A DNA stretch of 34,981 bases from a virus, in UHGV virus genome UHGV-0117537. One strand, given 5' to 3'. This document shows, piece by piece, positions 688 to 13,155 of this stretch. Numbering within the stretch: position 1 is the first letter of the stretch; each line of letters starts with the position of its first letter. The notes beneath the pieces were generated by a model, which saw only the letters and a list, made by a program, of their open reading frames with translations, was not told where the DNA came from and did no database searches. A program made the position numbers and the translations under genes.

Positions 688-1743
688 TTATGACGGGGTA
701 ATGCCAACCGCTGCCGCCACTTTGTCGCCACTTGGCAGCGTTGCCAGAGGATTGAAACGGAGCGCCGTTTCCAGATGATCCGGTGCCAGATGTGCGTAAC
801 GCATAGTCATTTTTATATCGTGGTGTCCGAGAATTTTTTGTAAGGCCAGAATGTTTCCACCCGACATCATGAAGTGCGCCGCAAACGTATGGCGCAGAAC
901 GTGTGTGAGTTGACCGCGAGGGAGCACGATAGACGTTTTTTCCATTACGGATAAAAATTGAAAATAGCAGTCTGTGAAGAAATTGAATCCATCAAGCGCC
1001 ATGATCTCTTCATAAAGCTCTTTACTGATAGGGATGCTTCTGTTTTTCTTTCCCTTCGTTCTTACAAAGGTAATTCGGTATTTAGTCACCTGTGATCGGG
1101 TAAGGTTTATTGCTTCTCGCCAGCGTGCGCCTGTGCTTAAGCATATCTTGACTACCAGCGCCAGAATTGGGTCCTGACGTTTGCAATCAGCCAGCAGTTC
1201 AACAATCTGCTCATGGGTAAGCCATGCCATCTCTTTTTCTGCGATGGTGAATTTTCGCATGTTCTCCAGTGGGTTTGGATACGACCATTCGCCCAGGCGG
1301 GATAGTTCGCTAAAAACACTACTTAGATAGCTTTGCTCCAGGTTAATGGTGACCGGGCTGGCTCCTTTCTTCCATTTCTCGCTGAAGTAGATCTCACCGG
1401 TCAGGCGTTTATCTCGATAGTGGGCAAACATTTTAGAGGTGAGATTGGTTGCAAGAGGATTGCCTAGAGCGTCAACCATCAGCAGCAATTTGTCATAGAC
1501 ATGCTGCCCAGCAGTCAGAGATTTACCATGTAATTTGAACCATAGCTCAACCACGTCTTTCAGGGTTCGACGATCCACTGATTCGCCCAGCCAGGGCTTT
1601 GATTCGGTTTCTTCCATCGTGTGACGCTCAAAAGCCAGAGCTTCGCCTTTGGTGGCGAATTGTTTACGCACACGACGCCCACTTCGTCCGGCGGGGTAAC
1701 ATTCGCAAAGCCATTTCCCTGTGGTGAGTTTTCGTACTGCCAT
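688..1743 (-). CDS. int: Tyrosine-family site-specific integrase (P2 Int-like)
   Basis: 351 aa; N-terminus MAVRKL..GRSGRRVRKQF and C-terminal catalytic region HVLRHTFAAHFMMSGGNILALQKILGHHDIKMTMRYAHL with terminal tyrosine motif typical of phage integrases. Confidence 0.93.
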   Translation of the reverse strand: MAVRKLTTGKWLCECYPAGRSGRRVRKQFATKGEALAFERHTMEETESKPWLGESVDRRTLKDVVELWFKLHGKSLTAGQHVYDKLLLMVDALGNPLATNLTSKMFAHYRDKRLTGEIYFSEKWKKGASPVTINLEQSYLSSVFSELSRLGEWSYPNPLENMRKFTIAEKEMAWLTHEQIVELLADCKRQDPILALVVKICLSTGARWREAINLTRSQVTKYRITFVRTKGKKNRSIPISKELYEEIMALDGFNFFTDCYFQFLSVMEKTSIVLPRGQLTHVLRHTFAAHFMMSGGNILALQKILGHHDIKMTMRYAHLAPDHLETALRFNPLATLPSGDKVAAAVGITPS

Positions 1744-1813: not shown

Positions 1814-3802
1814 TTAAAAAACATTCTTATCCCCGTGGAAAAAACGTGCAACGTTCAATAGCCAGTCGGGGGTTTTTATTTCATTTGAATTTGCTAGTAT
1901 TTCTAAATATTTTTCGCAAAATTCATTTTTTTTTCCTGGTAATTCGAAATAATCCTCAATAGCTTTTTTTTCTGTAATGTTAAGATTCAAAGCGCCTCCC
2001 GATACTGAAGACTCCATTAACTGTGGGGTTTCCATAAAGGACAAACTAGTTTCTCCTTTAGTGTAAAGCATTTTCAGAGTTTCTACGTAGAAATCAGCAT
2101 TAAGAGACTGCTCAATTTCTGTAGGTGGATAAACTCGATCATCAGTAACTTTAACAAGGCTTATATTAGATAAGTCTTTATCGAGCAAGAGTCTTCTTAT
2201 TTTTATACTTGGTATTGTATCTGTAGCATCATATGGACTATATTTGTGATCTGTATCTAATAATAATAATACTTTTCCTGAGATTGTTGCTTTGCGATCC
2301 TCTAACGCCATAACGAGTAAATTATATATTTTTTTTACTGTAGGGGAGCCACCGACGGATAAAACTATTAGTTTCTCAATGTTTTCATAATCCAAGTGAG
2401 CGGAAATATATTTTCTATCAGTTTTTCCTTCGCACAATATCCAGTTATAATTATTTCCAGATGTTATTGAATAAACAATTGATTGTGCTAAGTCGTGATT
2501 GCTTTTCATTTCTAAAACGTCAAGGCAAGAGCCATTTGACTCTTTTGCTAGTTCCTTTAATTCATCCTTGTAGTTTTCCAGATCGAGTGCTTTGATGTAT
2601 GTTTGAGAGGGGGAAATATATATGGCTGTACCTGAGCCTGTAACAGGTAAAAAACCATACCAATGAGTTGTACAAATAGTCTGTATGCCTAGGTCGCTAA
2701 TTTTTTTTATTTTATCAAATTGATTAAAACATGATGTGGCATGTAAGGATAATTCAGGTTCATCAACAGCAAGAATTGTTGAGTGCTGAGATTTTTGTGG
2801 ATTATGTTTTAAGAAATTGGTAGCAAGATCTAGCAATGCTTTTCTTTTTTCTCCTGAGCTTAAATTTTGCACAGGGGTATCTTTATTAACATCATCAATA
2901 TGATGTAATATTTTATCACTAAAATATGATTCAATTATTTTAGATATCATATGACGTTGAGTGAAACTATTTTGTCGCTGAGATGGTTTTTTAAATTGAT
3001 ATCGCCCCTCAAGCTTTGTAGTTAATTGTCTAATAAAATCATTTAAGTGCGAATTTATTGCTGTAATATCCTTTTTCTTAATGATTTTACTGATTTTTTG
3101 TTGGAGATTTTCACCTAATAAAGACTGTAATAAATCGCTTTCAATCCTTGAGTATTCGGATGTGGTTATTTCTGCAGGTAGGTAAATATAATTATAGATA
3201 TCCTTAATTGTTATTAATAGCTTAGGTAGTATATTGTTAAAATGATATTTTTTATTATTCGTCGAACTATTTTCATTTGCGAGATCATCAATTTGCAATC
3301 GATAATCATCTATAGATTCGAAAATTGACATGTAGGGGCGAGGAATATCATTTGCAGTTTCTTTTATTATCCCAAGGGGAATTAATAAATATTCATCTGA
3401 AGAATATTTGTATTCTAGTTGCTTCCTGTGTGATATAAATTTCTCAGCTATAGGACGTTGCAATGTATTAAAAACTTCACTTTCTATTTGCCAAGTGATA
3501 TCGCTTACGATTTCTAATGCTTTGTATAGGGAATTATTTATCTTTAGCTTGTTTTTATTTATTAAATAAATTGGCACAATGAATGGTTCTCGAGTATCGA
3601 AACCTTGACTGCGCGCTTCATTGTTGATATCAAGTCTATTGATATCAGTTTTATTTAGTACAATATCTAATGCTTGTAATATTGAGCTTTTCCCGACACC
3701 ATTTTCACCAATGAGCCAAGAGGATTTATTGTTTAAAGTGAGTGGGATATAATGTTGATTTTTGAAATTCTTGAAATTTCGTAAAATAACACCAATAATC
3801 AT
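1814..3802 (-). CDS. OLD-family ABC ATPase-TOPRIM nuclease-like protein (class 1 OLD-like; fused PARIS-like not excluded); candidate anti-phage defence cargo
   Basis: 662 aa; Walker A GENGVGKSS near N-terminus, ABC signature LSSGEKR, Walker B/D-loop ILAVDEPELSLH, H-loop TTHW, then C-terminal TOPRIM-like motifs ILCEGKTD and LLLDTD; gene visibly AT-rich relative to flanking phage genes; sits between cI and int. Confidence 0.65.
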   Translation of the reverse strand: MIIGVILRNFKNFKNQHYIPLTLNNKSSWLIGENGVGKSSILQALDIVLNKTDINRLDINNEARSQGFDTREPFIVPIYLINKNKLKINNSLYKALEIVSDITWQIESEVFNTLQRPIAEKFISHRKQLEYKYSSDEYLLIPLGIIKETANDIPRPYMSIFESIDDYRLQIDDLANENSSTNNKKYHFNNILPKLLITIKDIYNYIYLPAEITTSEYSRIESDLLQSLLGENLQQKISKIIKKKDITAINSHLNDFIRQLTTKLEGRYQFKKPSQRQNSFTQRHMISKIIESYFSDKILHHIDDVNKDTPVQNLSSGEKRKALLDLATNFLKHNPQKSQHSTILAVDEPELSLHATSCFNQFDKIKKISDLGIQTICTTHWYGFLPVTGSGTAIYISPSQTYIKALDLENYKDELKELAKESNGSCLDVLEMKSNHDLAQSIVYSITSGNNYNWILCEGKTDRKYISAHLDYENIEKLIVLSVGGSPTVKKIYNLLVMALEDRKATISGKVLLLLDTDHKYSPYDATDTIPSIKIRRLLLDKDLSNISLVKVTDDRVYPPTEIEQSLNADFYVETLKMLYTKGETSLSFMETPQLMESSVSGGALNLNITEKKAIEDYFELPGKKNEFCEKYLEILANSNEIKTPDWLLNVARFFHGDKNVF

Positions 3803-3822: not shown

Positions 3823-4413
3823 TTATTTACAGGTCATAATCACTTTAGCGATGATATTAACATCACTGATATTGCACTCTATTTTTTTTGATTTTGACTC
3901 TAGCATTATGCGGTTATTAGGTAACCTCATTAATTCTCGAACAGAATATATACCGTCAATGGCAATCAACCATAACCCATCATCAATCTCATCCACACCT
4001 CGTCTCACGACATAAGTTATATGCTCATGCTCAAGAGCTGAGATATCTTTTAGGTCATTTGGCAATAGTGATAAATCAAAAATTAAATAGCCATTATCAA
4101 TCAGTTTGCCATCGATAATTTTCTCTCTGGTCAGGCTTACAACATGCGATTTTGCATCCACATACATGGGGCCTTCAGCTGCGGATAGCCAACGAAGTGA
4201 AATACCTGTTTCTAACGCACATTGAATTATCCAATCAGCGGGGAATGTATCTCTCATATATCGATTAGCTAACGTGCTTTTAGAAACACCAAGATGTTCA
4301 GCCAAAGCCTGTCGTGTCGTAAAGCCATAAGCTTCGACTAATCGCTCAATCGCAGCCTTACCACCTTTATTGGGATTTATTTTGATCTCACTTGGGTACT
4401 TTGATGTTGACAT
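3823..4413 (-). CDS. cI: Prophage immunity repressor, 186 CI-like (HTH N-terminal domain)
   Basis: 196 aa; N-terminal HTH (FTTRQALAEHLGVSKSTLANRYMR); divergent from Apl/CII-like genes; size matches 186-type CI rather than 99-aa P2 C. Confidence 0.75.
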   Translation of the reverse strand: MSTSKYPSEIKINPNKGGKAAIERLVEAYGFTTRQALAEHLGVSKSTLANRYMRDTFPADWIIQCALETGISLRWLSAAEGPMYVDAKSHVVSLTREKIIDGKLIDNGYLIFDLSLLPNDLKDISALEHEHITYVVRRGVDEIDDGLWLIAIDGIYSVRELMRLPNNRIMLESKSKKIECNISDVNIIAKVIMTCK

Positions 4414-4762: not shown

Positions 4763-5272
4763 ATGTTTGATTACCAAGTTTCCAAACATCCACATTTTGA
4801 TGAAGCCTGTCGTGCATTCGCACTGCGCCACAACCTGGTGCAACTGGCAGAACGTGCAGGCATGAATGTGCAGATTCTGCGGAACAAGCTGAACCCAGCT
4901 CAACCTCATTTATTAACCGCACCAGATATCTGGCTACTTACCGATCTGACTGAAGATTCAACGCTGGTAGACGGTTTTCTGGCACAGATTCATTGTCTGC
5001 CATGTGTACCGATTAATGAGGTGGCAAAAGAGAAACTGCCACATTACGTCATGAGTGCAACCGCAGAGATCGGGCGTGTTGCTGCAGGTGCGGTATCTGG
5101 CGATGTAAAAACCAGTGCAGGTCGTCGTAATGCTATCAGCAGCATTAACTCTGTAACACGACTGATGGCGTTGGCTGCTGTTTCATTGCAGGCCCGTTTA
5201 CAGGCTAACCCTGCGATGGCGAGTGCAGTTGATACCGTGGCTGGCCTCGGTGCTTCATTCGGTTTGCTGTGA
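4763..5272 (+). CDS. cII: CII-like lysogeny establishment regulator (186 CII-like)
   Basis: 169 aa from internal ATG of ORF 4709-5272; sequence [44 protein letters not shown] recalled as 186 CII-like; position after apl. Confidence 0.7.
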
Positions 5273-5279
5273 GGTACTT

Positions 5280-5576
5280 ATGCTGACGAAAGAACCATCA
5301 TTTGCATCGCTGCTGGTAAAGCAAAGCCCGGCAATGCACTACGGTCACGGCTGGATCATGGGTGAGGATGGAAAACGCTGGCATCCATGTCATTCACAAG
5401 ATGAATTGCTGTCTGAATTGACCACGAGGAAACGGAGAAAGTCAAAATGTATGCAGCGGAAAGTGAAGTGGTTTATCAGTTTCGTTACAGAGGGGAGAGT
5501 TATTCAGTACCTGAAGATGATTTGCTCTGTTGTTATCCGTCGTTGTCGGGCGATGGCAGTTACTTTTTCACGCTAA
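5280..5576 (+). CDS. Hypothetical early protein (position of 186 fil / P2 orf78); 3' extent uncertain
   Basis: Internal ATG of ORF 5223-5576; overlaps next ORF by about 130 nt in another frame, so either the end is wrong or a frameshift exists. Confidence 0.35.
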   Translation: MLTKEPSFASLLVKQSPAMHYGHGWIMGEDGKRWHPCHSQDELLSELTTRKRRKSKCMQRKVKWFISFVTEGRVIQYLKMICSVVIRRCRAMAVTFSR

Positions 5577-5671
5577 AAGATGGGACGTTTTTACGGGGAG
5601 AGCAGGTTAAAGAGACGATACGAAAAAATGTATCTCCTCTTGAACGTTACCGTAATAACAAACAACGATAG
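5447..5671 (+). CDS. Hypothetical early protein
   Basis: 74-aa ORF with protein-like composition (MYAAESEVVYQFRYRGESYSVPEDDLLCCYPSLSGDGSYFFTLKDGTFLRGEQ); overlaps upstream ORF. Confidence 0.4.
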   Translation: MYAAESEVVYQFRYRGESYSVPEDDLLCCYPSLSGDGSYFFTLKDGTFLRGEQVKETIRKNVSPLERYRNNKQR

Positions 5672-5693
5672 TTGCGTTTTGGGGATATGAATT

Positions 5694-6035
5694 ATGGCAA
5701 TTAATGGCGCTGCGGCGACTGTTCCATTAAGCCCCGGTGAACGCCTGAATGGACTTAATCACATTGCGGAGCTAAGGGCGAAAGTTTTTGGCCTGAATAT
5801 TGAGTCAGAGCTTGAGCGGTTTATTAAAGATATGCGTGATCCACGGGATATCAATAACGAACAAAATAAACGGGCACTGGCTGCTATATTCTTTATGGCA
5901 AAAATTCCAGCTGAACGTCATAGCATCAGCATTAATGAGCTGACCACTGACGAAAAGCGGGAGTTGATTAAAGCAATGAATCATTTTCGTGCAGTGGTGA
6001 GCTTATTTCCCAGACGGCTAACCATGCCGAATTAA
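5694..6035 (+). CDS. Hypothetical early protein
   Basis: 113-aa ORF in early operon, same strand, non-overlapping. Confidence 0.5.
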   Translation: MAINGAAATVPLSPGERLNGLNHIAELRAKVFGLNIESELERFIKDMRDPRDINNEQNKRALAAIFFMAKIPAERHSISINELTTDEKRELIKAMNHFRAVVSLFPRRLTMPN

Positions 6036-6563: not shown

Positions 6564-7417
6564 GCACCATCCTGAAATGGGCGGGAAATAAAACCGCCAT
6601 TATGTCCGAACTGAAAAAACATCTTCCTGCTGGTCCGCGACTGGTTGAACCTTTCGCGGGTTCCTGTGCAGTGATGATGGAGACGGATTACCCCAGCTAT
6701 CTTGTTGCGGATATTAATCCTGATTTAATCAACCTCTATAAAAAGGTTGCTGCTGATTGTGAGGCGTTTATATCTCGTGCCAGAGCTTTATTTGAGGAAG
6801 CAAACAGAGAGGTGGCTTATTACAACATAAGGCAGGAGTTTAATTACTCCACTGAAATTACTGATTTCATGAAAGCGGTATATTTTCTGTATCTCAATCG
6901 TCATGGTTACCGTGGGTTATGTCGTTATAACAAGAGCGGGCATTTCAACATTCCATACGGTAATTATAAAAATCCGTATTTCCCTGAAAAAGAAATTCGC
7001 GCATTTGCAGAGAAAGCCCAGCGAGCAACGTTTATCTGCGCCAGCTTTGATGAAACGCTGGCGATGCTGCAGGTGGGGGATGTGGTGTATTGCGATCCGC
7101 CTTATGACGGTACGTTTTCCGGCTATCACACTGATGGTTTCACTGAAGATGACCAGTATCACCTGGCATCTGTTCTTGAATATCGATCATCAGAAGGTCA
7201 TCCAGTCATTGTTTCTAACAGTGACACATCCCTGATCCGTTCGCTGTATCGAAATTTCACTCACCACTACATCAAGGCAAAACGCAGCATCGGCGTGTCG
7301 GCTGGCGAGAGTAAATCTGCAACAGAAATCATTGCTGTTTCCGGGGCGCGCTGCTGGGTGGGATTTGATCCTTCGTGTGGCGTGGATAGTTCTGCTGTGT
7401 ACGAGGTGCGTGTATGA
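6560..7417 (+). CDS. dam: DNA adenine methyltransferase (Dam-like, N6-adenine)
   Basis: 285 aa from internal ATG of ORF 6500-7417; N-terminal KWAGNK and FAGSCAV (AdoMet-binding) motifs and catalytic DPPY ([12 protein letters not shown]). Confidence 0.85.
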
Positions 7418-9828
7418 GTCATGACGATATGAGCAACTCTAGCGGCTTTAACGAGGCCGCTGTAGCATTTTCATGGAACGGCCCGAAAAAGGCCATTAAC
7501 CCTTATCTGGACCCGGCGGAAGTTGCGCTGGAGTCTGCACTTTCAAACCTGATCACTCTGTACGCTGCCGATAATGAGCAGGAACAGCTGCGCCGCGATG
7601 CACTGAGTGAGCAGGTCTGGGAGCGTTATTTCTTTAATGAATCCCGTGATCCTGTCCAGCGTGAAATGGAGCAGGATAAGCTCATTAGTCGGGCAAAGCT
7701 GGCGCATGAACAGCAGCGTTTTAACCCGCACATGGTCATTCTGGCGGACGTCAGCGCCCAGCCTTCCCACATCAGCAAGCCGCTGATGCAACGTATCGAA
7801 TATTTCAGCAGCCTGGGCAGGCCAAAGGCTTATTCTCGCTATCTGCGTGAGACGATTAAGCCATGTCTGGAACGACTGGAGCATGTACGCGACAGTCAGC
7901 TATCCACTTCTTTTCGCTTTATGGCAAGCCATGAAGGGCTGGACGGCCTGCTGATCCTGCCTGAAATGAGTCAGGATCAGGTGAAACGCCTGTCTACCCT
8001 TGTCGCTGCGCATATGAGCATGTGTCTTGATGCCGCTTGTGGTGATTTGTACGCCACCGATGATGTTAAGCCAGAAGAAATCCGCAAGACATGGGAAAGG
8101 GTGGCAGCGGAAACCCTACGTTTGGATGTCATCCCGCCTGCGTTTGAGCAACTCCGTCGGAAAAGAAACCGCCGTAAACCAGTGCCCTATGAACTCATTC
8201 CGGGCTCGCTGGCGCGTATGCTGTGCGCCGACTGGTGGTATCGGAAATTGTGGAAGATGCGTTGCGAATGGCGGGAAGAGCAGTTGCGTGCTGTCTGCCT
8301 GGTCAGCAAAAAAGCATCTCCCTATGTCAGCTATGAAGCTGTGATGCATAAACGTGAGCAGCGCCGTAAGTCGCTGGAGTTTTTCCGTTCTCATGAACTG
8401 GTGAACGAAGACGGAGACGCGCTGGATATGGAAGATGTGGTAAACGCCAGCTGCAGCAACCCGGCGCATCGCCGCAATGAGATGATGGCCTGTGTTAAAG
8501 GTCTGGAGCTTATCGCGGAAATGCGCGGTGACTGCGCCGTTTTCTACACCATTACCTGTCCGTCACGTTTCCATTCCACGCTAAATAACGGCAGACCCAA
8601 CCCGACCTGGAAAAACGCGACGGTAAGACAAAGCAGCGATTATCTGGTCGGTATGTTTGCTGCATTTCGTAAGGCGATGCACAAAGCCGGGTTGCGCTGG
8701 TATGGCGTGCGGGTGGCTGAGCCGCATCACGACGGCACAGTTCACTGGCACCTGTTGTGTTTCATGCGCAAAAAAGACCGCCGCGCCATTACTGCATTGT
8801 TGCGTAAGTTTGCTATCCGTGAAGACCGCGAGGAGCTGGGCAATAACACGGGGCCGCGCTTTAAGTCTGAGCTGATTAACCCGCGCAAAGGAACGCCGAC
8901 AAGCTACATAGCGAAATACATCAGTAAGAACATTGACGGGCGTGGTCTGGCTGGCGAGATCAGCAAGGAAACGGGTAAATCTCTTCGTGATAACGCTGAA
9001 TACGTGAATGCCTGGGCGTCTTTGCATCGTGTTCAGCAATTCCGCTTCTTTGGTATTCCGGGGCGTCAGGCTTACCGTGAACTGCGATTGCTGGCTGGTC
9101 AGGCGGCAAGGCAGCAGGGTGACAAAAAAGCAGGTGTGCCGGTACTGGATAACCCGCGCCTTGATGCCATTCTGGCTGCTGCTGATGCTGGTTGTTTTGC
9201 CACCTATATCATGAAGCAGGGAGGTGTACTGGTTCCCCGTAAATATCACCTCATCAGAACTGCTTATGAAATTAACGAAGAGCCGACCGCCTATGGCGAT
9301 CACGGTATTCGTATTTATGGCATCTGGTCACCCATTGCAGAGGGCAAGATCTGCACTCATGCAGTGAAGTGGAAAATGGTTCGTAAGGCCGTTGACGTTC
9401 AGGAGGCGGCAGCCGACCAGGGCGCTTGCGCCCCTTGGACTCGTGGCAATAACTGTCCCCTTGCTGAAAATTTGAACCAACAAGGGAAAGACAAATCAGC
9501 TGATGGGGACTCCAGAACGGATATTACCCGTATGAATGACAAGGAGTTGCACGATTACCTGCACAGTATGAGCAAAAAAGAGCGCCGGGAACTGGCTGCA
9601 AGGTTACGCCAGGTGAAACCGAAACGGCGTAAAGACTACAAACAGCGAATTACAGACCATCAGCGACAGCAGCTCGTCTATGAACTGAAGTCCAGGGGAT
9701 TTGATGGCAGCGAGAAAGAAGTCGATTTGCTCCTTCGCGGCGGCAGTATTCCGTCAGGAGCAGGCCTGCGTATCTTCTATCGGAACCAGCGTCTGAAGGA
9801 AGATGATAAGTGGCGGAACCTGTATTAA
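7414..9828 (+). CDS. A: Rolling-circle replication initiation endonuclease (P2 gpA-like)
   Basis: 804 aa; conserved HWH-type metal motif (TVHWHLLCF) and active-site tyrosine region ([14 protein letters not shown]) typical of P2 A / phiX174 A family; position after early operon. Confidence 0.88.
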
Positions 9829-9920
9829 TTACGCGGGTTAACAATTCGTGCTCTTAATAATACCAGGCATATCAGGCCGATGAACGTAAAAAAACGTTTT
9901 ACATCAGTAAGATTATTATA

Positions 9921-9940
9921 TACTGTAAATATAAACAGTG
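9921..9940. promoter_or_regulatory. LexA (SOS) box taCTGTaaatataaaCAGtg
   Basis: CTGT-N8-ACAG with AT-rich spacer, close match to the LexA consensus; about 40 bp upstream of a strong AGGAGG RBS and the 9981 ORF. Confidence 0.7.
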
Positions 9941-9980
9941 GTTATGTATACAGTATTGTTTTGGTGTCATAGGAGGAAAG

Positions 9981-10169
9981 ATGCAGGACTATTTTTTGGA
10001 GTCTTTGAAGCTTCAGCGCATTGATTTTTTTCTTAAGCTTGTAGCGGCTAGTGAGTGTAGTGATGAAGAGAAGGGGCTGGCTCTGCAGTGGGTTTCTGAA
10101 TTGACTGATGAACTTATGGCAAAAATCAGAAGTCACGAATACAACCGCTCAATGGATGTCATCAGCTGA
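9981..10169 (+). CDS. Small SOS-controlled protein (possible N-terminal part of a Tum-like antirepressor)
   Basis: 62-aa ORF preceded by AGGAGG RBS and the LexA box; immediately followed by the DinI-like ORF. Confidence 0.5.
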   Translation: MQDYFLESLKLQRIDFFLKLVAASECSDEEKGLALQWVSELTDELMAKIRSHEYNRSMDVIS

Positions 10170-10179
10170 GGTGACTTTT

Positions 10180-10413
10180 ATGCGCATTGAAATAATGATC
10201 GATAAAGAGCAGAAGATTAGCCAGTCTACCCTGGACGCCCTTGAATCCGAGCTTTACCGCAATCTGCGCCCCCTGTATCCCAAAACGGTAATTCGCATTC
10301 GCAAAGGTAGCTCTAACGGTGTGGAACTAACCGGACTGCAACTGGATGAAGAAAGAAAACAAGTGATGAAAATTATGCAGAAGGTGTGGGAGGACGACAG
10401 CTGGCTGCATTAA
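10180..10413 (+). CDS. DinI-family protein (Tum C-terminal-like / DinI-like)
   Basis: 77 aa from internal ATG of ORF 10108-10413; MRIEIMIDK...SWLH resembles DinI family (MRIEV... start, acidic C-terminus). Confidence 0.75.
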   Translation: MRIEIMIDKEQKISQSTLDALESELYRNLRPLYPKTVIRIRKGSSNGVELTGLQLDEERKQVMKIMQKVWEDDSWLH

Positions 10414-10605
10414 GAAACGTGGCCCCCAGGAGGATTCATTCTGATGGGGGCTAGTTTGGGCAATGAGTGAAATAAGGCGTAAGGTGGGCGGTTATTTTGA
10501 TAAGTGATCGTCCGCTTTGTGTCAGAAGCAGAAGTGGGAGTGTCTGAGACTCTCTAAAAGTTGATGATTCACTTACAAAACCATTTTCCTGATGGATGCT
10601 TACAC

Positions 10606-10941
10606 TTACGAATGATCATTCTGTTTAGTCTTCATGAGAAAATCCCGAATCTTTGCCAAGTTTGAATTTTCGGGGATTGAATCCATGTACGGATCACGCT
10701 CAAACACTAATTGCTCAGATTCAACGAAAGCCTGCCACTCTACTGGGTCTAGCTCAAATCCCATTGCTGTCATATCACTTTCATCTTCCCCCTCGATCCA
10801 GTGGACTAAATAAAACAATTCATCATCAGGAGAATCATCCTCACCATCAACAATATCAACATCGGTTACAGTGATACGTAGGGTGGGATCGATTTTTGAG
10901 ACATAAATTCCTAACTGTGGTATAGGGGGAATATTGTTCAT
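10606..10941 (-). CDS. Hypothetical acidic protein (orphan, accessory)
   Basis: 111-aa ORF on opposite strand to surrounding genes; strongly acidic (runs of D/E: DGEDDSPDDE, EGEDESD); no family recognised. Confidence 0.45.
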   Translation of the reverse strand: MNNIPPIPQLGIYVSKIDPTLRITVTDVDIVDGEDDSPDDELFYLVHWIEGEDESDMTAMGFELDPVEWQAFVESEQLVFERDPYMDSIPENSNLAKIRDFLMKTKQNDHS

Positions 10942-11320
10942 GGAAACTCCTTTTATTGGTGTTTGCTATTTGAATAAAAATACGCCAAACAGAGTGTTAA
11001 CTGTGAATATGGAAAGAATCGTTGTAAGTACCCCGCTTAGGTGTCCCATTCTATTTTAGAGGTTCTCGTGCATATGGATTATGTTATCTGAAAGCTAACT
11101 TCCGCTTCCCGTTCACAGCGAACATTCATCTTTGTAAACCCGTATGATCCGTTTTTCAAGTGGCCATTCAGATACGGATTTTCACTTCCTTGACAGTGCA
11201 TGACTATGCTGCATGAAATCGCATGATCGATTGAGGATCGTCTTTGCTCAGATCCGCCAGAACTGGCGGGCTTTTGCTCATGTCATGCATGTGCATGAAA
11301 ACCACTGCATAAAGCGGGCA

Positions 11321-11340
11321 GGCGTGGCGGGGATACGAGC
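11321..11340. other. Candidate cos (cohesive-end) site
   Basis: GGCGTGGCGGGGA... resembles the 19-nt cohesive ends recalled for 186/P2 (GGCG(T/A)GGCGGGGAAAGCA); GC-rich island in otherwise AT-rich intergenic region between A-side genes and portal side. Confidence 0.3.
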
Positions 11341-11415
11341 GCGCGGAAGCAGTTTCACATGTAATTCGATTGGTGTAATCTAAACTACAACTTAAGAAAA
11401 GAGAATGAGTAAACC

Positions 11416-13155
11416 ATGGAATTGCACGCATATACTAGAACCATATCAGAATTACTTTCGGTTAATAGAAAATATGTTGTCCCAAGATTTCAGCGAGAAT
11501 ATTCTTGGGTAAAAGAACAAATTAATGAGCTTTGGTATGATGTAATATCTAATATCAAATTAGAGAATGATTTCACATATTCTAATAATGAGTATTTTAT
11601 TGGTTCTTTAGTTTTAGTTGGAGATGAAACAGGAAGGGAAATGCAAATAGTTGATGGTCAGCAACGACTTACAACTCTTACGATTTTTCTTTCCGTTTTA
11701 TGTGAGGCGTTCAAGCTAAACAATCAATCAGATTTAGCATCTGCTCTATTTGAAAATTATATTGAAGGTCGTGATGATGATGGTAAGAAATTTTTTAAGC
11801 TAATAAATGAAACACCTAAGCCTTTTTTTCAGAAAAATATCCAACACCTTAATAAGGCAGATGACGCACCCCAGACACAAGAGGAGCGAAATCTCTTGTC
11901 TGCATATAAGGAAATTACATCGTTAGCCTCAAAGGAAAAATTGGGAAAGCATTTTTCAGTCGAAATTAATACTGAAGATAATTATTCCAGTGTATTAAAA
12001 GCAATTAGGGATCAGATTTTAAGATTTCTTAAGATAATTTTTATTACTGTTAATGAAGAGGACGAGGCGTATACAATATTTGAAACATTAAATGCGAGAG
12101 GGATGAATTTAAGTTTTGTAGATCTAATTAAAAATAAATTATTTAAAGCGTTAAACAACCCTCATCCAAATGATGATGCAAAAGATAATTGGAAGGCTAT
12201 ACGTACTACTTTAATGCAAAGAAATGGTGTAGGGACTTTTGAAAATTTCATGAGGCACTGGTGGGTGTCGAAGTATGCTTACGTGAGCAATGAAAATCTT
12301 TATAAGTCCTTTATTGGAAAATGGCGTAAGGGGGAAATTAATCCGGTAACCTTTATTGAAGAATTGAAACAGGATGCCGAATTGTATGTACGCTTGTCAT
12401 CTCCTTTGGAGAGTGATTATCCACAAATGGAAGATAAACAGATATTCCATTCGTTGAATGCAATTAGGCTATTTGGTATAACGCAGTGTAGACCTTTTTT
12501 ATTAGCTTTACTAAAGGCAAAACAGCAAAGGAGATTGCGTCAATGTGATCTTTTAAAAGCAGTTAAATATATTGAAAATTTTCATTTTGTATTTAATGCG
12601 ATATGTTCATTAAGGCCGTCAGGGATAGAAGGTGCATATTCTAAGGCCGCAAGAGCAATAAATTCACCAAATGCTACAAAAGTAACTAATGGTACAACAA
12701 TTGAACAGTTATGCTTGTTGTTGAGTAACCGCAAGCCAGAAATTTCTGTATTCACTGAAAATTTCAGAGATATATTATTTACTGATGACAACTCCAAGCA
12801 AAAAAGATTGGTCCAATATATTATAAATAAATTTGAAATGGCCCGTCATAATGGAGATGAGTATCGTCCTAATTCTATTTCTTTAGAGCATATAATGCCT
12901 CAAAGTGCTGGCAACGATAAGGAAATAGGAATGATTGGAAATATAATCCCTCTGTCAAAAGAACTTAATGAGCAAGCTGGTAATAAATCATTGGCACAAA
13001 AGCTCTCTATCTATTCACAATCGGAGTTTAGATTGACGGAAGAGTTTATTAGTGAACTTGAAACCATTTACCATAATGAATGGAATCTCCAGTCTATTAT
13101 TCAGAAGACAGATAGAATGGCTGGTGAGGCTTATATGAATATTTGGAGTCATTAA
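11416..13155 (+). CDS. DUF262/DUF1524 (GmrSD/BrxU-like) type IV restriction endonuclease-like protein; candidate anti-phage defence cargo
   Basis: 579 aa; N-terminal DGQQR motif (QIVDGQQRLTTL) diagnostic of DUF262/ParB-like NTPase domain, C-terminal His-Me/HNH-like motif (ISLEHIMPQS) of DUF1524; markedly AT-rich; located between replication gene and portal gene. Confidence 0.72.
   Translation: MELHAYTRTISELLSVNRKYVVPRFQREYSWVKEQINELWYDVISNIKLENDFTYSNNEYFIGSLVLVGDETGREMQIVDGQQRLTTLTIFLSVLCEAFKLNNQSDLASALFENYIEGRDDDGKKFFKLINETPKPFFQKNIQHLNKADDAPQTQEERNLLSAYKEITSLASKEKLGKHFSVEINTEDNYSSVLKAIRDQILRFLKIIFITVNEEDEAYTIFETLNARGMNLSFVDLIKNKLFKALNNPHPNDDAKDNWKAIRTTLMQRNGVGTFENFMRHWWVSKYAYVSNENLYKSFIGKWRKGEINPVTFIEELKQDAELYVRLSSPLESDYPQMEDKQIFHSLNAIRLFGITQCRPFLLALLKAKQQRRLRQCDLLKAVKYIENFHFVFNAICSLRPSGIEGAYSKAARAINSPNATKVTNGTTIEQLCLLLSNRKPEISVFTENFRDILFTDDNSKQKRLVQYIINKFEMARHNGDEYRPNSISLEHIMPQSAGNDKEIGMIGNIIPLSKELNEQAGNKSLAQKLSIYSQSEFRLTEEFISELETIYHNEWNLQSIIQKTDRMAGEAYMNIWSH

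Follow-up and report, generated by a model that had tools for sequence, protein, structure and literature searches.

The DNA analysed here, referred to as the window, is the 34,981-nucleotide virus genome UHGV-0117537, whose gene content is that of a P2/186-family prophage of the Fels-2 type (Peduoviridae). It encodes an integrase, a 186-type CI immunity repressor together with a CII/CP76 homologue, a Dam methylase, the replication endonuclease gpA, and portal and terminase genes. The CI reading frame matches both Pfam families expected of its name, Phage_CI_repr (PF07022, E 2.5e-30) and Phage_CI_C (PF16452, E 3e-23). Directly 3' of gene A, in synteny with Fels-2, 186 and PSP3, lies a compact SOS module: gpA ends at 9828 and the module runs from 9898 with a putative promoter, a LexA operator, a 62-aa ORF that we name tumA, a 77-aa DinI-family ORF that we name tumB and a GC-rich hairpin (Table 1). 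The tumB ORF is in the +1 frame relative to tumA (10180 - 9981 = 199), and the TGA stop of tumA is followed by a 10-nt gap, which includes GAGGTGA, and then by the tumB ATG.

A preliminary description of the sequence had proposed at this place an SOS-controlled Tum-like module whose coding capacity is divided between a 62-aa ORF and a DinI-like one. Its inventory is borne out: a near-consensus LexA box, an AGGAGG ribosome-binding site ahead of a 62-aa ORF, a 77-aa DinI-family ORF in another frame, and a joint coding capacity of about 139 aa (62 + 77 = 139 aa, against 146 aa in 186 Tum) are all present, and the gene to which it compared them, tum of phage 186, is indeed LexA-controlled with a DinI-like C-terminal part. 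The split itself agrees with what is reported of Fels-2 (PMC3121763) and with the annotation of PSP3. The description fell short at the operator, where it named one LexA box: the box that it saw is the first of two overlapping ones, and the second was missed.

Table 1. Position of the SOS module and of neighbouring genes in the window.
Feature	Position	Strand	Remarks
Integrase	688-1743	-	
AAA_15 / OLD / AriA-like ATPase	1814-3802	-	662 aa; between int and cI
186-type CI immunity repressor	3826-4413	-	Presumed TumA target; Pfam Phage_CI_repr and Phage_CI_C
gpA replication endonuclease	7414-9828		804 aa
Putative -35 hexamer	9898-9903	+	TTTACA; p95-equivalent SOS promoter
Putative -10 region	9919-9926	+	Either TATACT (spacer 15 nt) or TACTGT (spacer 17 nt); overlaps box 1
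LexA box 1	9923-9938	+	CTGTAAATATAAACAG; 20-mer TACTGTAAATATAAACAGTG at 9921-9940
LexA box 2	9938-9953	+	GTGGTTATGTATACAG; one base in common with box 1; degenerate left half
Shine-Dalgarno of tumA	9971-9976	+	AGGAGG; ATG (9981) follows after 4 nt; conserved in all relatives
tumA	9981-10169	+	62-aa antirepressor homologue; orthologue of Fels-2 STM2728
Shine-Dalgarno of tumB	10168-10174	+	GAGGTGA; overlaps the stop of tumA; ATG follows after 5 nt
tumB	10180-10413	+	DinI-family protein of 77 aa; orthologues in Fels-2 (STM2726.1) and PSP3 (TumB)
GC-rich hairpin after tumB	10419-10453	+	Positional counterpart of 186 t95a
Acidic ORF	10606-10941	-	111 aa; between tumB and the GmrSD-like gene
GmrSD-like gene	11416-13155	+	579 aa; 3' of tumB

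Several neighbouring genes vary between relatives. The ATPase between int and cI matches AriA (E 3.6e-23) and Old (E 1.1e-17) in PADLOC, different genes occupy this interval in relatives, and the ATPase probably serves in defence against phages, as cargo of a variable prophage region. On the other side, the GmrSD-like protein 3' of tumB combines PF03235 and PF07510 and matches HEC-06 of PADLOC with an E-value of 1e-92; its spot is held by orf97 in 186, by STM2726 in Fels-2 and by TIR, RloB/ATPase or other cargo in relatives. The 111-aa acidic ORF that precedes it gave no match in Pfam or PADLOC, and is labelled hypothetical protein (WP_001059831.1) in E. coli Ecol_224.

The module is widespread and its split form is known

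A 650-bp region around the module is about 96% identical to the Salmonella prophage Fels-2, where the upstream gene, STM2728, is annotated as hypothetical and the downstream gene, STM2726.1, as a DinI family protein "similar to TumB of PSP3". Of 5426 complete E. coli genomes, 1124, about a fifth, contain the locus, nearly always annotated as a hypothetical protein followed by a DinI-like family protein, and also in many Peduoviridae of Klebsiella, Salmonella and Yersinia. The record of PSP3 calls tumA "similar to 5' end of 186 tum; UV induction of prophage" and tumB "similar to dinI and 3' end of 186 tum". In the record of 186, a fused tum of 146 aa lies behind the LexA-repressed promoter p95.

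The literature agrees with these records. 186 Tum has been described as resembling an antirepressor–DinI fusion (Lemire et al. 2011, PMC3121763), and a passage of the same paper, citing Bunny et al. 2002, states that tum is split in two in Fels-2 and PSP3; another assigns the antirepressor activity of PSP3 to the upstream gene on the strength of a personal communication. Also according to a passage there, 186 Tum binds CI and blocks its binding to the operator (Shearwin 1998, via Lemire 2011, PMC3121763). In Fels-2, STM2727 was induced 5.5–14.8-fold by a mutagen, and STM2726-STM2727-STM2728 were listed among the operons analysed (PMC2225428). For SopEPhi, a passage of PMC9827884, citing Diard 2017, links SOS-driven expression of Tum to induction. 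A full-text literature search on the names tumA and tumB returned unrelated papers only. The split tumA-tumB arrangement is thus already known, from Fels-2 and PSP3.

Compared with these systems one by one, the window is closest to Fels-2, to whose pair of genes orf10/orf11 of SopEPhi are closely related; with Fels-2 it shares the order of gene A, LexA operator, 62-aa ORF, 10-nt gap and 77-aa DinI ORF. It differs from Fels-2 in its CI, 37–41% identical overall, and in what follows tumB: the orf97-like STM2726 there, the minus-strand 111-aa ORF and the GmrSD/HEC-06-like gene here. In PSP3, too, gene A is followed by a LexA box and two distinct genes, and these are in frame, parted by a TAG and one codon; its TumA is distant from that of the window, the link between them being transitive through the N-terminal half of 186 Tum. 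In 186 the position, the SOS control and the logic are those of the window, whereas both halves stand in a single ORF with internal starts and orf97 follows tum. [quoted passage not shown] 2011, PMC3121763), but with dinI first and the order of the genes thus reversed.

TumB belongs to the DinI family

The assignment of the downstream ORF is straightforward. TumB matches the Pfam family DinI (PF06183) over profile positions 1–63 of 63, with an E-value of 6.6e-23 and a score of 81.3 bits against a cut-off of 24.2, and it matches the structure of E. coli DinI, PDB 1GHH, with an E-value of 2.7e-6; 7YWA was also matched as DinI. Its sequence is 100% identical to the Fels-2 protein, 78% identical to PSP3 TumB and 41% identical to the C-terminal half of 186 Tum. 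Judging from this homology, TumB probably acts on RecA filaments and, through them, modulates SOS signalling.

TumA is a remote homologue of the N-terminal half of 186 Tum

The upstream ORF was less easily placed. It is 97% identical to Fels-2 STM2728 and 90% identical to the SopEPhi ORF, and phmmer against 1.84 billion representatives retrieved 67 clusters of small proteins. BLASTP gave no alignment of the 62-aa ORF with 186 Tum or PSP3 TumA, a Pfam search found nothing above noise, and a sequence search of the PDB found no match. AlphaFold2 models TumA as a two-helix hairpin (helices 2–23 and 28–61, pLDDT 88), for which Foldseek returned only generic helical hairpins from the PDB, with E-values of 0.87 or worse. 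In some records (MK416009, MK422454), the 62-aa homologue is named "levan regulatory protein" or "levan regulatory domain protein", which looks like a propagated misannotation.

Because BLASTP left the relation to Tum and TumA blank, profiles had to be compared. Homologues of the 62-aa ORF, of residues 1–72 of 186 Tum and of PSP3 TumA were collected, trimmed, aligned and compared with hhalign. The family of the 62-aa ORF matched the family of the Tum N-terminal half with a probability of 95.4% and an E-value of 1.8e-8 over 41 columns, and in the same register, residues 4–44 being aligned with residues 4–44. The Tum N-terminal family in turn matched PSP3 TumA with a probability of 89.5% (E 2e-6), and the direct match of the 62-aa ORF to PSP3 TumA was weak (E 0.011) and kept the register around a conserved Cys and an Ala-Leu pair. 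Controls were far lower: shuffling the columns of the Tum family 60 times gave scores of 9.6 ± 1.8 with a maximum of 16.3, and the reversed alignment scored 6.5, against 42.0 for the real one. Since the profile match stands so far above its controls, the 62-aa ORF is genuinely, if distantly, homologous to the antirepressor half of Tum, as judged from profiles over about 41 columns. Of the alignment to 186 Tum suggested in the preliminary description, the DinI-like ORF thus gave a direct result, whereas the 62-aa ORF failed with BLASTP and succeeded with hhalign; a lack of similarity to the Tum N-terminus, which had been named as evidence against the proposal, is what BLASTP returned, and the profile–profile comparison overturned it.

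A double SOS box overlaps the putative promoter

How would such a module be controlled? The 20-mer TACTGTAAATATAAACAGTG agrees with the LexA consensus at 17 of 20 positions, a score that none of 100 shuffles equalled, and it is the sole CTGT-N8-ACAG within the 35-kb window. It does not stand by itself: the operator at 9923–9953 consists of two 16-bp LexA boxes with a one-base overlap, following the 31-bp pattern CTGT-N8-ACAG/GTGG-N8-ACAG, and by its sequence it is a double SOS box of the colicin type. A 42-bp operator segment found matches of about 87–92% on small mobilizable plasmids, two of which we inspected. One of these has the operator 43 nt ahead of the colicin N gene cna, and its alignment with the operator of the window shows identity at 32 of 36 positions; the other is pPCP1 of Yersinia pestis, which carries a similar operator (pesticin). 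[quoted passage not shown] The double overlapping box is common to the colicin and pesticin operators and to that of the window, but it precedes a bacteriocin there and a prophage antirepressor here, and the colicin N operator differs from the tumA promoter in its -35 element and spacer. Fels-2 has the same double box as the window, whereas 186, PSP3, ESSI2_ev040 and Yersinia phage 06.16-2 (Yen06.16-2) have a single LexA box each, that of 186 being 18 nt from the start codon.

A strict sigma-70 consensus scan of 9700–11500 called no promoter, so that the promoter assignment rests on phylogenetic footprinting and on analogy with p95 of 186. Across five diverged lineages, TTTACA at 9898–9903 is invariant (5/5) between flanks that are 35–48% identical, and TATACT at 9919–9924 is invariant as well (5/5). 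Conservation in this footprint was 100% for the -35 and for the -10, 79% for box 1 (95% for its half-sites) and 87% for box 2 (100% for its ACAG right half), and dropped to 48% in the leader after box 2. In p95 the annotated -10 coincides with the opening 6 nt of the LexA box, at a spacing of 17 nt, which compares with the TACTGT option in the window. We take TTTACA/TATACT as the putative promoter of the SOS operon. The LexA operator overlaps this promoter at the level of the sequence, an arrangement in which bound LexA would be expected to block it.

At the other end of the operon, the hairpin after tumB has a fold energy of -24.7 kcal/mol and a z-score of -2.4, followed by a poor T-tract (TAGTTTGGG). 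In 186 the partial terminator t95a is annotated at the matching position, and by this analogy the hairpin is a possible weak or partial terminator.

tumA and tumB are two genes under selection

The preliminary description had left three options for the split: a genuine pair of genes, a frameshift or sequencing error, and a regulated recoding event. We compared the junction of the window with those of relatives fetched for this analysis. In the window, Fels-2 and other near-identical loci, tumA ends in TGA, the gap is 10 nt and the frame offset is +1; the corresponding values are TAA, 11 nt and +2 in SEN8, SopEPhi and ST437phi4.1, TAG, 12 nt and 0 in MLG42, TAG, 13 nt and +1 in ST13phi12.1, and TAG, 3 nt and 0 in PSP3. 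Despite these differences in the gap, a purine-rich Shine-Dalgarno and an ATG precede a 77-aa tumB in every relative compared. The dN/dS ratio is 0.04–0.08 for tumA and does not exceed 0.11 in tumB, pairs with dS > 1 included; by this measure both ORFs are under strong purifying selection, each in its own frame.

The DinI part is also separable from the rest. It is fused in 186, adjacent in Fels-2, PSP3 and the window, and absent in ESSI2_ev040 and Yersinia phage 06.16-2, which have TumA-like genes (7501–7713 and 6950–7132, respectively) behind a near-consensus LexA box and no DinI gene at all. Such loci mean that the DinI module is optional. Thus, the three states, fused, adjacent and absent, indicate a module built from separable parts, with the LexA box and tumA as its core.

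Could the two ORFs nevertheless be a single tum gene that was broken by a frameshift mutation, or that appears so through a sequencing error? The locus would then be a pseudogene or an artefact. The combined 139 aa come near the 146 aa of 186 Tum with its fused halves, and no stop interrupts the tumB frame in the 75 nt that precede its ATG. We nonetheless give this reading next to no credit. The same junction is kept in the 1124 E. coli genomes and in dozens of phages of Klebsiella, Salmonella and Yersinia, in all of which two genes are annotated, both ORFs are under strong purifying selection in their own frames even between sequences with dS > 1, and tumB has a start signal of its own in all relatives. 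Furthermore, among the 67 cluster representatives found with TumA as the query, none is a Tum-sized protein extended C-terminally past the TumA match, and TumA-like genes without DinI exist. A regulated +1 frameshift or stop readthrough yielding some TumA–TumB fusion fares only marginally better and is very improbable. In its favour, a +1 shift anywhere in about 10105–10166 of the window would join the frames, the two ORFs of PSP3 and MLG42 are in frame with a TAG between them, and a weak hairpin spans the junction. Against it, close relatives show all three offsets (0, +1 and +2), gaps of 3–13 nt and each of the stop codons TGA, TAA and TAG, and because stop, gap and offset all vary, no single recoding mechanism could be conserved. 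The stretch open upstream of the tumB ATG shrinks to 12 nt in MLG42 and to 3 nt in PSP3. Direct reading of 10140–10169 revealed no slippery heptamer and no prfB-like CUU-UGA before the tumA stop. The hairpin itself (10158–10175), which had been flagged as terminator-like, was rejected as a regulatory element: its z-score against shuffles is -0.69 and its sequence differs in diverged relatives. On these comparative grounds the tumA-tumB split is a genuine two-gene layout, and we reject frameshift, sequencing error and recoding.

A different doubt concerns what tumA encodes. The 62-aa ORF might be an unrelated small prophage protein that happens to sit in the tumA position, with the antirepressor encoded elsewhere or the prophage not SOS-inducible. 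The blank results of BLASTP against Tum and TumA and of the Pfam search, and the uninformative fold matches, are what one would then expect, and no co-variation ties the sequence of TumA to the linker or the C-terminal domain of CI. We consider this improbable, if less so than a broken or recoded gene. It would leave unexplained why the profile aligns in the same register with that of the Tum N-terminal half, at a score that the shuffled and reversed controls do not approach, and why the gene keeps its position after gene A, between the LexA box and the DinI module; and passages in the literature place the antirepressor in the upstream gene of PSP3 and name tum in SopEPhi and Fels-2.

A model for the induction of the prophage

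Taken as a whole, we regard it as highly probable that the locus is the LexA-controlled SOS operon of a Fels-2-type prophage, encoding a separate TumA antirepressor and a DinI-like TumB. In the undamaged cell, host LexA would sit on the double SOS box, cover the -10 and the start site and keep the operon silent. Upon DNA damage, RecA-stimulated self-cleavage of LexA would free the promoter, and a single tumA-tumB transcript would give rise to two separate proteins. TumA would bind the uncleavable, 186-type CI of the prophage and stop it from binding its operator, leading to lytic development, while TumB would be translated from its own Shine-Dalgarno, 10 nt past the tumA stop, and act on RecA filaments. 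By analogy with 186, the CI encoded on the minus strand is the presumed target of TumA. Within this scheme, the sequence elements, the homologies, the selection on both ORFs and the lack of a conserved recoding geometry are results of our analysis; the split layout, the antirepressor activity of the upstream gene (PSP3) and the damage-inducible expression (Fels-2, SopEPhi) come from the literature on orthologues; and we infer LexA binding, the role of TumB and the binding of TumA to CI in this prophage. The CI of the window is only 37–55% identical to the CI of phages with the same TumA, which counts against taking the TumA–CI pairing as established here.

TumA type follows the N-terminal domain of CI

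The pairing of TumA and CI has a further feature. Across seven phages and prophages TumA is at least 97% identical, and their CI proteins are 32–61% identical to one another. This divergence is unevenly distributed: the N-terminal helix-turn-helix domains of all CI partners of the Fels-2-type TumA are 59–81% identical, and the C-terminal domains are 24–36% identical to that of the window and 24–60% identical (median 32%) among the seven CI. The N-terminal domains of the CI of 186 and PSP3, which are paired with remote TumA types, are 41–42% identical to that of the window. In 50,697 phage records we found nothing close to the CI of the window: the best matches reach 55–56% identity, although TumA is at least 97% identical between the window and these phages. 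These comparisons, drawn from few independent lineages, fit a TumA type that tracks the N-terminal rather than the C-terminal domain of CI. Some CI proteins of this phage group are longer, about 290–313 aa: those of Kp4860-7 and PSP3 have a duplicated N-terminal helix-turn-helix domain, and for that of Ecol_224 (locus 4850–5788), of 312 aa, the length is what was seen.

[quoted passage not shown] As at least seven CI classes with conserved N-terminal domains occur together with a near-invariant TumA, one TumA allele could induce divergent Fels-2-like prophages in trans. The double box, if this is true, would make induction a late, high-threshold event confined to a subpopulation, as in colicins.

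As a finding, the locus matters little, being another copy of a prophage induction switch that has been described. It has value for annotation: tumA, for an SOS-controlled antirepressor, is a name that can be given to the 62-aa gene, mostly a "hypothetical protein" in RefSeq and phage records. The double SOS box and the link between TumA and the N-terminal domain of CI are modest leads. The former bears on how tightly induction is gated, and the latter on polylysogens, in which P2-like prophages may coordinate or cross-trigger one another.
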